From sequence record OP744025: a DNA stretch of 64,000 bases; one strand, given 5' to 3'. The position numbers and the translations under genes were made by a program. Position 1 is the stretch's first letter. Each line of letters starts with the position of its first letter. The notes under the pieces are model-generated. The model did not search any database, was not told the origin of the DNA, and saw nothing but the letters and a program-made list of their open reading frames with translations. The stretch comes from Escherichia phage A5-4. Below, one piece after another: positions 9,631-26,447 of the stretch.

Positions 9631-10449
9631 ATGGCCTACCGTAAATTTGACCCACTGATCATTTATGAAGTTGTCCCAATGAGCGTCACCAATCCTCATG
9701 GTTTGCAATCACCTACTCCACTTGACCATAAGACAATGATCAGGAATGCAGAGTACACCTTAAGAGATCTTGAGAACGAAGAGATTGAAAGTGCTGTGCA
9801 TGGATTGAAAGACCTGATCCGTGAACTTGATACGGATGATTCTGTTCAAGAATATATTGAAAAGTCAGAGGCGCTAATCACGAAGTTTCATGAGTACCGC
9901 ACTAAGGTATCGCGTATTCTTGATGAAGCTTTTGATCCTTCATCAAAAGACCCGATAAATGATGACAAGGCAATAGCCTTACTCAGCCAAATAGCTGACG
10001 CTACTGACAGCATGGACCCTGGTTTTGTAAGGGCTGATCATACCTGTGTAGATCAGTTTCCTTTAGCCTATCTTAAATCCAAAAAAGCATTCGGTAGTCT
10101 GGCTTTTGTCTGGGAGTATGAGAAAGATTCCCTTACTCGTTACATCAATCGGGTAGGTAAGAAAGATACTTCAGTTACGTTAAATATCTTTTGTGATGGT
10201 TCCTTGATGGTCCATAACAACTGGACAAAAGAGAGCATCCTCTTTGGTAAAGAAAGAGATCAGAAATTTAAACTGGTAAACTATATCCGTTTCGCAACAG
10301 AGGATAGTAAAATGGGTAAGTCATTTAAAGAGGAGGACTTTAAAACTTTCTTTGAGGATTGGCTTTCCCCAACAGAAGAAGAGATCCAACTCTTCAAGGC
10401 TGTAAATGGGGATGTTTCGTTCGACCTCTACACACTTTTTAATGAGTGA
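9631..10449 (+). CDS. hypothetical protein
   Basis: 272 aa; AGGAG RBS; last gene of rightward unit before repeat region. Confidence 0.6.
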   Translation: MAYRKFDPLIIYEVVPMSVTNPHGLQSPTPLDHKTMIRNAEYTLRDLENEEIESAVHGLKDLIRELDTDDSVQEYIEKSEALITKFHEYRTKVSRILDEAFDPSSKDPINDDKAIALLSQIADATDSMDPGFVRADHTCVDQFPLAYLKSKKAFGSLAFVWEYEKDSLTRYINRVGKKDTSVTLNIFCDGSLMVHNNWTKESILFGKERDQKFKLVNYIRFATEDSKMGKSFKEEDFKTFFEDWLSPTEEEIQLFKAVNGDVSFDLYTLFNE

Positions 10450-10469
10450 TATTTGTTCGCTGAAACAAA

Positions 10470-10566
10470 TTCAGATTTCAGATCCAAAATCTATTTGAGA
10501 TATTTCCCTGTGATATTTGTTTCATGGGGAATTTTCAGATTTCAATTTGAAATTCTATTTGAGATA
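10470..10566. repeat. imperfect 33-bp direct repeat x2 (TTCAGATTTCA-N9-TCTATTTGAGATA)
   Basis: copies at 10470-10502 and 10534-10566, 64-bp period. Confidence 0.6.
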
Positions 10567-10748
10567 AATTTAAGACTCCTGCCACCGTGCCCCATCCATA
10601 CTGTGTCATTCCTGCATACCTGCACCACTAGATCAACTTAGTTGATGCCCCTCTTACAGACTCACCCTCCAGATTCAATACGTTACTGCTCCACTATACA
10701 TACGATACAAAGCAAACATACGACACTCATGACCAGAATAATTTGAGA

Positions 10749-10912
10749 ACTTGAGAGGTTTTTCATTTTTGAGATCGTAACCTGAAAACTGTGCACGAGA
10801 ACTTGAGAGGTTTTTCGATACAGGGATTAGGAACTTGATAGCTTTTTCATTTTTGAGTTTGCATTTGAACTTGAGAACTTGAGCTACAGGCCAGATACTT
10901 GAGAGGTTTTTC
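10749..10912. repeat. iteron-like 16-bp direct repeats ACTTGAGAGGTTTTTC
   Basis: copies at 10749, 10801, 10897 plus variant ACTTGATAGCTTTTTC at 10834 and partial ACTTGAGA copies at 10868-10883. Confidence 0.7.
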
Positions 10913-11269
10913 AAATTTCAGTTTCATTTCAAAATTGAAAAATTTTTCATAAGCATAAAAGTATAGAGGTTGTCAAGGTCTTTGATAAGAAATTTTTCAG
11001 GGGGTGAGAATTATTCTCATTTGCAAAATAGCGGGCAGGGGTGGTGATTGCCTCGTGAAACCGTCCTCATCACCGTGAATATATAATAGCACCGTTTTTG
11101 ATTCGAAAGCAACAACATTTTAAAAATATTTTTCGGTAAATTTTAGGCGAGCTACCAGCGATTATAGCTATCGATGCCCTTCGGCTATCATCACCCAAGT
11201 TTAACGCCGTTGGTAGGCGATTGTTTTCCTATGTAGGCATTATGGCCCCTGGCGGGGCCGTTGTCAACA

Positions 11270-11551
11270 TTATTTTTTATCTTCTTGCCAGGTAAGAACG
11301 CCTAACCAAAAATACACGTCGCCCTTAGCGTTCGGCGGTATCTTGCTTTCTTTCCCGCCAGCACACGCCCAAAGGTAACCATCGGTAAACGTATCAAGGT
11401 AGTCCATATCTTCCACCTTTCGATCCGCCAGGTTAAGGATAGTATTAACGTCTAAGCCTGTTGCGCTTGCTACCTGGTAGACCGTGCCACCTTGCCAGCC
11501 TAACGAGTGCATAAGATGCAAAGTAGTAGTAGTAGTGGTGATGGTAGTCAT
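11270..11551 (-). CDS. hypothetical protein (orphan leftward ORF)
   Basis: 93 aa, Thr-run at N-terminus; isolated between repeat region and small-gene array; weak support. Confidence 0.3.
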   Translation of the reverse strand: MTTITTTTTTLHLMHSLGWQGGTVYQVASATGLDVNTILNLADRKVEDMDYLDTFTDGYLWACAGGKESKIPPNAKGDVYFWLGVLTWQEDKK

Positions 11552-11662
11552 AGTATCGCCCTTTCTTCTGTTGTGCGCCCTGGTTGGCGCGGTAAAAAGA
11601 CTATAAATGATCTTCCTTTATATGGCAAGGAAAAAGAAAATTAAAAAAGATTGAAAATAATG

Positions 11663-14582: not shown

Positions 14583-14801
14583 ATGGCCAATATCCGCACT
14601 GTACTGAAAAATGCAAAACAAGTTTTATTTTCTGACGATGAATATTTTAATCGCAATATCAAAGGCGTTCGGAACATTGAGGATGTAAAGGAATTATTTG
14701 GAATCAAAGGTAACGTATATCGTAAAGGATTGCACGGTAATAATTTTGAATATAAGTTGGCTGATAGTGATTATAATTTTACACTGACCACCATTAGTTG
14801 A
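14583..14801 (+). CDS. hypothetical small early protein
   Basis: cassette 14502-14558 upstream. Confidence 0.55.
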   Translation: MANIRTVLKNAKQVLFSDDEYFNRNIKGVRNIEDVKELFGIKGNVYRKGLHGNNFEYKLADSDYNFTLTTIS

Positions 14802-14820: not shown

Positions 14821-14849
14821 TTGACTTAAGCCGATAGTGCTGGCATAAT
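14821..14849 (+). promoter_or_regulatory. sigma70-like early promoter
   Basis: TTGACT, 17 nt, CATAAT; near-duplicate of 15114-15142. Confidence 0.55.
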
Positions 14850-20893: not shown

Positions 20894-20955
20894 TTGACAA
20901 TAGTTTGTTACTTGATAGAATGTATTTCGTAGGGCGGGGCAATGGAGCAACGCCC
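20894..20955 (+). promoter_or_regulatory. promoter + 5' stem-loop cassette
   Basis: TTGACA, 16 nt, TAGAAT, GTATTTCGTAGGGCGGGG...CGCCC. Confidence 0.55.
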
Positions 20956-25432: not shown

Positions 25433-25442
25433 TCAACCAGGG

Positions 25443-25460
25443 GCCGCAATAGTGGCCCTT
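25443..25460 (+). terminator. terminator-like hairpin ending rightward small-gene array
   Basis: GGGCC-GCAATAGT-GGCCC then TTGTC; weak U-tract. Confidence 0.4.
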
Positions 25461-25664
25461 GTCATGTCCATCGGTGCGACTCTCCCAACTCTATTAATCC
25501 CTTCCCCATTTGGATCATCATAACTTATCTCATCTAATCATTAATCTAATCCCCTTTGGAATCTCTCCCCCACAAATCTAAACTAATCTGATAGCTTACC
25601 ATAACATAATCCACAAAGAAAGAACTATTTTGCCCACAAAGAAAGGCAGTTTTAAAGAGATACC

Positions 25665-26085
25665 ATTGCCAGAGTATGGAGGTGGCGCGACCGTAGGGAG
25701 CGACACTATAAAACGAGTATACCCCTCCTACCGCCCTGCGGTCATCGGTGATAACCGATAACATACTGTTATCTGTTCTCTTCGTTTCCTCGTTTTATAG
25801 TGTCTATATGTAGTAATCTTTTATTCTTTGTCAACAGATTAATTGGCTTATAGACAATTATTTATAGTGATTTATTATGCATAGTTATTGATTATGTATG
25901 CAATAAGGATACAATAAGGATACAGTAGCGGTAGTGTAGCGACGCTGTAAATATCAACAAAGAGAGGCCGTATTTGCCCACAGAATGAACAAGTAAGCAG
26001 GGCGGTACGCCCTTTTGCTAGGTAAAACTCTCTTCTCTCTTCTTTCCCAAATAAATTTTTTCTTGCTTTTATTGCCAGAGTATGG
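25665..26085. repeat. dispersed direct repeats ATTGCCAGAGTATGG (x2) and TTTGCCCACA(A/G)A (x2)
   Basis: copies at 25665 and 26071; TTTGCCCACA motif near 25630 and 25973. Confidence 0.55.
26000..26016 (+). terminator. terminator-like hairpin inside non-coding region
   Basis: GGGCG-GTA-CGCCC followed by TTTT. Confidence 0.45.
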
Positions 26086-26447
26086 CGGGCGCTCAGGCTA
26101 TTGATGGCCCTGATGGAGTCGCTCCTGCACAGTTGGGATAGTTCATCGTTGGATAGTCACAAGTTGGTATTATTCTTCCCACTAGTTGGAACAGGCCAGG
26201 CCTGGCAAGGCTTAGAGTCGCCTCACTTGTTGGACGGAAGGAGGGCGCTTGCGGTGCGTATAAGTTGTATTATGTTAAATGCAGATCGAAATTGGTATTC
26301 TAAACCAGATTCAGAAGTCAAGGGAAATCTTTAACTTTATTGTTGGAGTAGCACAACATTTTTCTTGACAAGTCGAATCAAAGATGTATTGTGGATTGAA
26401 AATAAATGAAGATAATGCTTGACTTCTTGGATATTTTGAAAACATCG

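Follow-up and report, generated by a model that had tools for sequence, protein, structure and literature searches.

Escherichia phage A5-4 (sequence record OP744025) was analysed over a stretch of 64,000 nt, hereafter the window. Between a rightward operon that ends at position 10449 and a gene on the minus strand, with divergent promoters at 11628 (minus) and 11663 (plus), the window contains an island of about 820 bp which an earlier sequence-only reading, made without database searches, had described as non-coding DNA with iteron-like repeats and as a candidate origin or array of binding sites for a regulatory protein (10450-11270). As judged by comparison with related genomes, this island is the form that a non-coding control locus, NCR1, takes in Septuagintavirus; the locus is common to the Vequintavirinae and the Stephanstirmvirinae (phi92/phAPEC8-like phages). 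The island comprises an iteron array, a Fur-box palindrome, two conserved modules and three candidate promoters (Table 1). We consider the island to be, with a probability of roughly 35%, an iteron-type, transcription-activated replication origin or control region that would be coupled to Fur of the host.

Table 1. Features of the island and of the gene preceding it (positions in the window).
Feature	Position	Strand	Description
272-aa gene	9631..10449	+	Fast-evolving; orthologue adjoins the island upstream in other genera; phrog_12463, phrog_12959
L-module	10446..10566	+	Two 57-nt units, each GTGATATTTG (10446, 10510) followed by TTCAGATTTCA-N9-TCTATTTGAGATA; begins at the 272-aa gene's stop codon
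G-poor, C-rich tract	10567..10740	+	G 21, C 57, A 53, T 43 of 174 nt
Iteron array	10747..10950	+	(G)AACTTGAGAGGTTTTTC at 10749, 10801, 10833 and 10897, plus a degenerate copy at 10932-10950
P_L	10960..10988	-	Candidate sigma70 promoter: -35 TTATCA (10988-10983), 17-nt spacer, -10 TATACT (10965-10960); would fire into the iterons
Fur-box palindrome	11003..11021		GGTGAGAATTATTCTCATT; perfect 7-1-7 core TGAGAAT-T-ATTCTCA at 11005-11019
Module C	11020..11092		Conserved block (CAAAATAGCGGGCAGGGGTGGTGATTGCCTCG...) after the Fur box; most widely conserved part of the island
P_M	11083..11112	-	Candidate promoter: -35 TTGCTT (11112-11107), 18-nt spacer, extended -10 TG-n-TATTAT (11088-11083)
Module D	11146..11219	-	Predicted structured element of ~75 nt; conserved arms (CGGCG/CGCCG closing helix) flanking an internal hairpin
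P_D	11239..11267	-	Candidate sigma70 promoter: TTGACA (11267-11262), 17-nt spacer, CATAAT (11244-11239); 11/12 match

Over the region 10300-11400 the window is 99.9% identical to Escherichia phage A7_1 and 90-96% identical to UPEC06, A73, W70 and vB_EcoM-LTH01 (LTH01). These phages belong to a clade that has been described as Septuagintavirus in a paper in which the island region is not mentioned (PMC11370258). By its sequence, the stretch is a Septuagintavirus, rV5-like, of the subfamily Vequintavirinae. In sensitive blastn searches different pieces of the island match different genera, and the syntenic regions were fetched from Seunavirus (PVP-SE1), Certrevirus (CR3, P7_Pc), Mydovirus (Ro1, KP12, KPP-1), Henunavirus (pEa_SNUABM_55, here pEa_55), Justusliebigvirus (cardinal, FKP3) and Vequintavirus (rV5). 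Direct inspection revealed in all of them a gene-free stretch of 0.6-1.0 kb with a common order of elements, and the complete order was recognised in nine genera of the two subfamilies. From the stop codon of the upstream gene onwards, GATATTTG repeats are followed by A/T repeats with a period of ~11 nt, by a variable middle part that is G-poor in the E. coli phages, and by three or four composite iteron units, in place of which the phi92-like phages have a different repeat in three copies. The palindrome then follows in one to four copies, after it the conserved block termed module C, then module D, which was not found in rV5, and finally a minus-strand sigma70 promoter with a GC-rich spacer. 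When the PVP-SE1 stretch from the palindrome to beyond module D was used as query, 361 phage records matched, including phAPEC8-like phages and more than 100 Vequintavirus genomes. Module C is 83-88% identical over 58-72 nt between PVP-SE1 and Vequintavirus. No similarity of the island to plasmid replicons was found, and the GC skew in the window tracks gene orientation only.

The statement of the sequence-only reading that the island holds no credible open reading frame (ORF) agrees with the alignments. The ORFs at 10453-10641(+) and 10675-10914(-) both carry in-frame stops in at least one of four sister phages, as do the small ORFs at 11017-11118(-) and 11070-11198(-), while the ORF at 10642-10746(+) is frameshifted in UPEC06. 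In the five-genome alignment, stop codons are thus present in four of the five tested island ORFs and a frameshift in the remaining one, and the substitutions are spread evenly over the codon positions without a third-position bias. The GenBank records call differing and mutually inconsistent 'hypothetical proteins' in the island. At least five such coding sequences, including ORF198 of rV5, are almost certainly not genes, and their annotation is corrected by this result.

At least four copies of ACTTGAGAGGTTTTTC had been noticed in the island, and we find three exact copies (10749, 10801 and 10897) and one with two mismatches (10833). No other site within three mismatches occurs in the window, where 1.19 would be expected scattered across the 64 kb. 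Together with the degenerate fifth copy, successive spacings are 52, 32, 64 and 36 nt. Measured against the mark of an iteron-type origin, a non-coding cluster of at least three direct repeats (~17-22 bp each), the island has four plus one degenerate repeat within 204 bp, and none occurs elsewhere in the 64 kb. The composite unit is clearest in PVP-SE1 and pEa_55, where it reads GKWCTYGAKMGGTTTTTC - AAAATCGAAAAYGKATTTT - CGAAAAAATTTTTY with a period of 65-78 bp, and three copies of such units are present in PVP-SE1, pEa_55, Ro1/KPP-1, CR3/P7_Pc and rV5. The iterons of the window are a compacted version, in which only the last unit (10895-10950) retains all three parts; this unit carries the A/T palindrome TGAAAAATTTTTCA (10936-10949). 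In Septuagintavirus every copy has TTGAGAGG as the core of the first part of the unit, as do two of the three copies in pEa_55, whereas every copy in PVP-SE1, Ro1/KPP-1, CR3/P7_Pc and rV5 has TCGATC(G/T). Such concerted change within a genome would be expected of sites that co-evolve with one sequence-specific DNA-binding protein; gene conversion among the repeats would yield the same pattern. A lack of conservation of the repeats in related phages had been named beforehand as an observation that would speak against the earlier reading, yet three or four copies are found in every genus with this type of unit. Together with the concerted switch of the core, this conservation supports the proposed array of binding sites for a regulatory protein well.

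At the left border of the island, the duplicated unit reported earlier is likewise real: the 64 kb contain exactly two copies of TTCAGATTTCA-N9-TCTATTTGAGATA (10470-10502 and 10534-10566), and none is expected from shuffled sequences. The full unit is 57 nt long (10446-10502 and 10510-10566), with 75% identity between the copies and a period of 64 nt. An opening of the island by GATATTTG repeats and ~11-nt periodic A/T repeats is found in CR3, PVP-SE1, pEa_55, Ro1, P7_Pc and FKP3. The A/T-rich stretches that had been pointed out are present as well, with 73-78% A+T at 10900-10960 and 68-75% at 11080-11140 as compared to a genome average of ~60%, and no 13-mer-type repeats were identified in the A/T-rich stretches of the island. 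The G-poor tract, the palindrome, the promoters P_L and P_M and the promoter role of a GC hairpin at the right border were all absent from the sequence-only reading. Of these, the G-poor tract resembles a Rho utilization (rut) site for the rightward operon and would give a G-rich RNA if read leftward. The rV5 homologue has a similar tract ahead of its iterons, whereas such a tract is weak or absent in the other genera.

The perfect 7-1-7 palindrome TGAGAATTATTCTCA is the only exact match to TGAGAAT-N-ATTCTCA in the 64 kb (11005-11019). Orthologous palindromes are present in all genera, with one to four copies per NCR1 and the extended consensus AATGAGAATCATTCTCATT, and the last box has a fixed position relative to module C throughout. 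Letter for letter, AATGAGAATCATTCTCATT is the Fur-box consensus of Xanthomonas campestris, which the classical E. coli Fur consensus matches after a frame shift of 3 bp (PMC1790865), and Fur sites of Acinetobacter also contain AATGAGAATCATT (PMC3055841). The exact 19-mer AATGAGAATNATTCTCATT was found in at least 120 bacterial contigs. Two of ten sampled genes adjoining it encode iron transporters (FeoB and a PF10634 Fe2+ transporter) and five belong to families typical of Fur regulons (two extracytoplasmic function sigma factors, Peripla_BP_2, an ABC ATPase and a periplasmic solute-binding protein); the remaining three were uninformative.

Furthermore, 24 kb of the ent-fep region of E. coli K-12 were scored in the same frame. 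Here 19-mers with at least 14/18 matches occur only in the fepA-fes, fepD-entS and fepB-entC intergenic regions, where they score 14-15; these regions separate divergent iron-uptake operons and contain the classical promoters under Fur control. Against AATGATAATNATTATCATT the box of the window scores 14/18 and the orthologous boxes 15-17/18, and the rV5 box contains GATAATGATAATCGTTCTC, which, counted by eye, matches the E. coli consensus in its own frame at 16/19 positions. As far as sequence can tell, the palindrome is a Fur box and a candidate operator, and what makes the copy in the window credible is its perfect symmetry and orthologous position, not the score alone. The only other 14/18 site of the window, GCTGATAGTGATTATAATT, lies at 14760-14778, ~45 nt upstream of a promoter at 14821. 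In the searchable literature no Fur boxes of virulent phages were found, only one upstream of a prophage sitABCD operon (PMC6969025), and a search for Vequintavirinae transcriptomes returned nothing relevant.

The boxes might also serve as a decoy. Multiplied by phage replication, they would titrate Fur and thereby derepress iron uptake and other Fur-controlled functions of the host, with the remainder of the island being unrelated regulatory DNA. The number of boxes does vary freely, from one to four per NCR1 and with more in a terminal non-coding region of KPP-1, and the boxes lie off the core of the two best-conserved promoters, such that their position relative to promoters may not matter. 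However, the island of this phage has a single box, and Fur is abundant in E. coli, so that a sponge of one box per genome would be weak. That the last box holds a constant position with respect to module C in every genus argues for a local function in cis instead, and we regard a decoy role as very improbable.

The GC hairpin GGCCCCTGGCGGGGCC that had been reported near the right end of the island is present at 11245-11260 and forms the spacer of P_D. In every genus the hexamers of P_D are conserved and the spacer is GC-rich and usually self-complementary, the hairpin being retained by compensatory changes (GGCCCC/GGGGCC, GCGCCC/GGGCGC, GCCCCA/TGGGGC). A pattern scan of IMG/VR and metagenomes also detected the TTGACAA-GC hairpin-CATAAT architecture in front of ordinary genes in unrelated contigs. 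Since unrelated large phage contigs use promoters of this type for ordinary genes, P_D appears to represent a widespread, general class of promoter that is not specific to the island. Some of the contigs with the hairpin promoter are large (~150 kb) phage contigs and others come from soil.

P_L and P_M were obtained from a relaxed promoter scan of nine phages. A minus-strand promoter of the P_L type, with its -10 element ending 44-50 nt left of the first palindrome, was found in UPEC06, Ro1, PVP-SE1, pEa_55 and FKP3, and matches the consensus at 10/12 positions with an extended -10 element in PVP-SE1. Promoters of the P_M type, in which the -10 element ends 73-80 nt (95 nt in cardinal) to the right of the last palindrome's left edge, are present in eight of the nine phages, FKP3 being the exception, with the variants TTGCAA-17-TATATT in Ro1 and CR3 and TTGATC-16-TATTAT in PVP-SE1 and P7_Pc. 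P_D, P_M and P_L are thus candidate promoters whose matches to the consensus are supported by conservation of position. All three point leftward, to the iterons and to the opposing rightward operon.

Module D, 74-81 nt long in the different phages, has an internal segment of which there are three unrelated versions, each forming a hairpin at the same place. Allele A is found in the window and A7_1, Ro1, KP12, cardinal, FKP3 and P7_Pc, allele B in the other four Septuagintaviruses, KPP-1, CR3 and PVP-SE1, and allele C in pEa_55; the alleles do not track the genus boundaries. In the consensus structure of the minus sense 97.4% of the cells pair. The covariation reaches 0.498 as compared to 0.223 in shuffles, a value attained in none of 500 shuffles and far above every slid control, with the alleles representing only two or three independent events. 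G.U pairs are tolerated in the minus sense only, where the plus sense would have C.A mismatches. A plus-sense fold was considered and rejected, as its consensus shows no covariation. Support for the minus sense only is consistent with an RNA transcribed from P_D, ~13 nt upstream of the module. Folds of single sequences, computed for both strands of modules C and D, were uninformative (z -0.1 to -2.1). Searches of Rfam 15 gave only a sub-threshold SNORD45 match (23 bits versus a gathering score of 42; E = 0.27), ARAGORN found no tRNA or tmRNA in the window, and no intrinsic terminator that would bound a small RNA was found in the island.

Next to allele A, a gene for an HNH endonuclease is found in Ro1, cardinal and P7_Pc, whereas the allele has no such neighbour in the window, KP12 and FKP3. 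Part of its identity across genera may therefore be due to homing-associated transfer, and an origin of this identity solely in horizontal spread with the HNH gene is partly plausible. The distribution of the alleles points to a specificity module or else to their co-conversion together with a homing endonuclease.

Among the individual homologues, that of rV5 (DQ832317, ~116,805-117,364) is annotated as the protein-coding ORF198. Its GTACTCGATCT..TTTTC iterons and its Fur boxes number three each, module C is duplicated and a promoter of the P_D type is present, whereas module D is apparently missing. Salmonella phage R7, a relative of PVP-SE1, is filed under Demerecviridae, and its 80-bp assembly overlap is annotated as attL/attR. 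About 20 records of 'Campylobacter phages' are 93% identical to the rV5 non-coding region and probably represent mislabelled coliphages.

The strongest competitor of an origin is a region of transcription control that buffers termination between convergent units and has no role in replication, an explanation that we consider possible but rather doubtful. Here the rightward operon would be stopped at two kinds of element, a Rho-dependent terminator (the G-poor tract with its many C) and weak hairpin-plus-T structures within the iteron units, and a short leftward early unit (the promoter at 11628, a 93-aa gene, P_D, P_M and P_L) would run out in the island, with iterons and Fur box acting as operators that tune the promoters. 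The gene arrangement, with the island between a plus-strand operon and a minus-strand gene and next to divergent promoters, would suit this explanation. So would the tract itself, which begins ~120 nt past the stop codon and whose 21 G and 57 C are a classic rut composition, although it is not conserved beyond the E. coli phages. The iteron units of PVP-SE1, read from the sequence, can each form an A/U-rich hairpin followed by GTATTTTTTC, but these hairpins are too A/U-rich for efficient termination. In PVP-SE1, CR3, P7_Pc and rV5 the Fur box covers the -35 element and spacer of a rightward promoter TTGAAT-18-CAGAAT, which is the canonical geometry of Fur repression, and such a promoter would make an iron-responsive non-coding RNA. 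The behaviour of module D as a structured RNA is a further point in favour. In the window, however, this promoter lacks its -35 element (GGGGGT), no match to an Rfam family was obtained, and an intrinsic terminator delimiting a small RNA was not found. Moreover, a regulator with three or four sites spread over 250 bp and no gene to regulate would be odd.

A second large non-coding region, at ~25,440-27,050 of the window, lies where plus- and minus-strand gene blocks converge. It contains the most G-poor tract of the window (from 25467), CCCCCTCCCCCTCCCCC at ~26451-26467, four DnaA-box-like sites with 8/9 matches (26811-27003, including a tandem 21-nt ACTCTGTGGACAAT repeat) and, on the minus strand, CTGAAGAG repeats. 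The window has a single copy of the terminal-repeat-end motif TTGACAAAGA, at 25834(-), and a 28-nt piece conserved in terminal repeats is found at 26253-26281. From these motifs, the second region probably holds the direct terminal repeat of the phage. The record of EdH4 (MK327930.1) has identical ends of 459 bp, i.e. a direct terminal repeat, which maps to positions 960-1418 of a 2.6-kb 'non-coding' box that was marked without interpretation in the rV5 genome paper (PMC3606486). This repeat starts 11 nt before a Fur-like palindrome and follows CCTGAAGAG... repeats, and the record of bov22_2 starts and that of HdK5 ends at the same positions. The region of the rV5 box is 90-95% conserved in 122 Vequintavirus records, several of which begin or end inside it. 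For KPP-1 a terminal repeat of 514 bp has been reported (PMC9862379), which lies in a convergent non-coding region of KPP-1, 8 kb from the NCR1 of that genome. Its ends resemble those of EdH4 (GRCGGACRG ... TTGACAARGAG), and at least five boxes in the Fur frame, scoring up to 17/18 (AATGATAAGGATTATCATT), are found in this region (MT438396.1, 115300-117800). Fur-like boxes thus recur in both kinds of non-coding region of this phage group.

The island itself is probably not a genome terminus, as inferred from the motifs that place the homologues of the EdH4 and KPP-1 terminal repeats at 25.8-26.3 kb. An assignment as terminus based on the starts of the LTH01 and R7 records was rejected, as LTH01 is contiguous across its ends and R7 has an 80-bp end overlap. 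An identification of the island with the rV5 'non-coding' box, and with a ~2-kb intergenic region between opposed genes in which a transposon screen of Bas54 recovered no insertions (bioRxiv 10.1101/2025.11.20.689424), was withdrawn, the true rV5 homologue of NCR1 being at ~117 kb.

These termini bear on a further possibility, namely an accessory site for packaging or concatemer processing, modelled on cosB/cosN of lambda or on the repeat arrays that flank the T7 terminal repeat. The iterons would serve as binding sites of the small terminase, with the palindrome marking the cut or assisting it. The layout of cosB, three to four protein-binding repeats with a site for a host factor, is a precedent, and the same families of motifs occur at the real genome ends of relatives (the 459-bp ends of EdH4 and the repeat region of KPP-1). 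However, the termini of KPP-1 and rV5/EdH4 are 8-10 kb from their copies of NCR1, the terminal-repeat motifs of the window lie in the second region, and the breaks of the LTH01 and R7 records near the island look like assembly overlaps. We therefore consider a packaging role improbable, and both this and the decoy less likely than an origin or a termination buffer.

Taken together, the island is unlikely to be junk and most probably serves in replication or regulation. For the iteron-type origin or control region that we favour speak the array of apparently co-evolving sites, the bent A/T-rich DNA, predicted inward transcription from several constitutive promoters, the putative structured leader, a host-factor site at a fixed position and universal conservation without coding capacity. 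In such a mechanism the host RNA polymerase would enter from the right at the tandem sigma70 promoters P_D, P_M and P_L and transcribe leftward. The transcript from P_D would start with the ~75-nt structured domain of module D. Transcription would pass the Fur operator (11005-11019) and then the four iterons and the phased A/T-tract repeats, which a phage-encoded, sequence-specific protein would bind, and would finally reach the tract that yields G-rich RNA. The box is centred at about -59 from the predicted start of P_L and at +57 to +71 from that of P_M, i.e. ~59 bp upstream of the former and 57-71 bp downstream of the latter, a position from which Fur could couple the use of the locus to the iron status of the host. 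A/T-rich and A-tract elements lie on both sides of the iterons, and the G-poor tract is 500-700 nt downstream of P_D, a geometry that resembles the R-loop origins of ColE1 and T4. The sequences themselves show the repeats with their conservation and concerted change, the lack of coding capacity, the identity of the palindrome with a Fur box, the conserved positions of the promoter-like sites and the pairing statistics of module D. Promoter firing, binding by Fur and by a phage protein and the start of replication at the island are what we infer from this arrangement.

Several observations weigh against an origin. While the anatomy is compatible with the proposal of the sequence-only reading (iterons, A/T tracts, inward transcription and a host-factor site), the island has no DnaA box within one mismatch, and no neighbouring gene resembles a known initiator. 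The spacings of the iterons are not helically phased, and the second region, with its DnaA-box-like repeats at 25.4-27.0 kb, is an alternative candidate for an origin. The coupling to Fur faces objections as well: two 14/18 sites in the 64 kb, as compared to 1.5 +/- 1.1 expected in Markov-1 random sequence, are not above chance when the score is taken alone, and the box is clear of the -35 and -10 elements of P_L and P_M, which is atypical for a simple Fur-repressed promoter. Finally, the transposon-free region of Bas54 corresponds to the terminus-bearing second non-coding region and not to the island. The EdH4 terminal repeat inside the rV5-type box gives an obvious reason for the lack of insertions there, and the transposon result thus has no direct bearing on the island.

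A candidate partner of the island, and only that, is the 272-aa protein encoded directly upstream. Its gene family occupies this place in six phages of five genera, and the protein has a conserved C-terminal motif FKTFFxDWxxPTxEE. No match was obtained in Pfam, among PDB sequences or by fold in a Foldseek search against PDB with an AlphaFold2 model (predicted local distance difference test score 67), and a search of IMG/VR yielded no loci. With tblastn only five sister phages were detected, a word-indexed protein search gave one cluster, and a full HMMER search gave nine matches. Further to the right, strong plus-strand sigma70 promoters (10-11/12) precede the small-gene array at 14821, 15114, 19130, 20894, 22112, 23585, 23887 and 24625. 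A motif of the YRTAGGGC type lies a few nucleotides downstream of the -10 element in the promoters at 20894, 22112, 23585 and 23887, and a weaker form of it is seen following P_D and in relatives from metagenomes.

Iteron arrays are well known, as are Fur operators, but we have not found their combination described in a conserved non-coding locus of virulent enterobacterial phages. It is conceivable, although far from assured, that virulent phages of the rV5/phi92/phAPEC8 supergroup have wired Fur of the host into conserved, cis-acting non-coding loci (the island and, in some genera, the terminal-repeat region), with iron status gating replication, early transcription or genome processing, or with Fur as an architectural host factor, as IHF is for lambda. 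No lytic phage that uses Fur in this way was found in the searchable literature. Should Fur bind, phage development would become tied to the availability of iron, the dominant stress that the host imposes in the gut and in infected tissue, and therapeutic efficacy could be affected, rV5-like, phi92-like and phAPEC8-like phages being common in therapy collections. The locus is compact and universally conserved and consists of discrete, separately mutable parts, namely the iterons, the Fur box, the putative structured RNA element and the three candidate promoters.

Among known systems, the iteron origins (lambda ori with its O-protein repeats, P4 ori/crr and the RepA-iteron plasmids) share with the island three to five direct repeats of ~16-20 bp in non-coding sequence beside A/T-rich or bent DNA, transcription directed into the repeats, and a repeat sequence that changes in concert within a genome, in the manner of iterons and their initiator. 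Unlike these origins, the island, as a putative origin, is not in or beside a recognisable rep gene and has no DnaA or IHF consensus sites, and its repeat units are long (52-78 bp period) and composite. The R-loop origins (ColE1 RNA II, T4 ori(uvsY) and ori(34) and the T7 primary origin) are analogous in their constitutive host-type promoters 0.2-0.7 kb upstream, in a structured 5' domain and in a downstream tract that would give G-rich RNA on a C-rich template. They differ in that the G-poor tract of the island is lineage-specific and permits no inference of an RNase H or processing site; unlike in ColE1, no conserved antisense promoter of the RNA I type was found in the island.

With lambda cosB and the arrays at the T7 concatemer junction the island has in common repeated protein-binding motifs and a host-factor site, and related motifs flank the true terminal repeats in Vequintavirus and Mydovirus; unlike cosB and the T7 arrays, the island lies 8-14 kb from the terminal-repeat homologues. 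The rV5 box and the Bas54 region come from the same subfamily and share with the island Fur-like palindromes, GTGATATTTG and a TTGACA promoter, but they correspond to the terminal-repeat-bearing region at 25.4-27.0 kb of the window. As compared to bacterial Fur operators (fepA-fes, fepB-entC, iucA and AATGAgAATcATTctCATT of Xanthomonas), the box of the island is a putative site in a gene-free region of a virulent phage, with no iron-related gene downstream, and it does not cover the -10 and -35 elements of the two best-conserved promoters. It is nevertheless the same 19-bp 9-1-9 palindrome with the same sequence. By the same count the phage boxes score as high as or above the operators of ent-fep, and several of the phages have overlapping or adjacent arrays of boxes.

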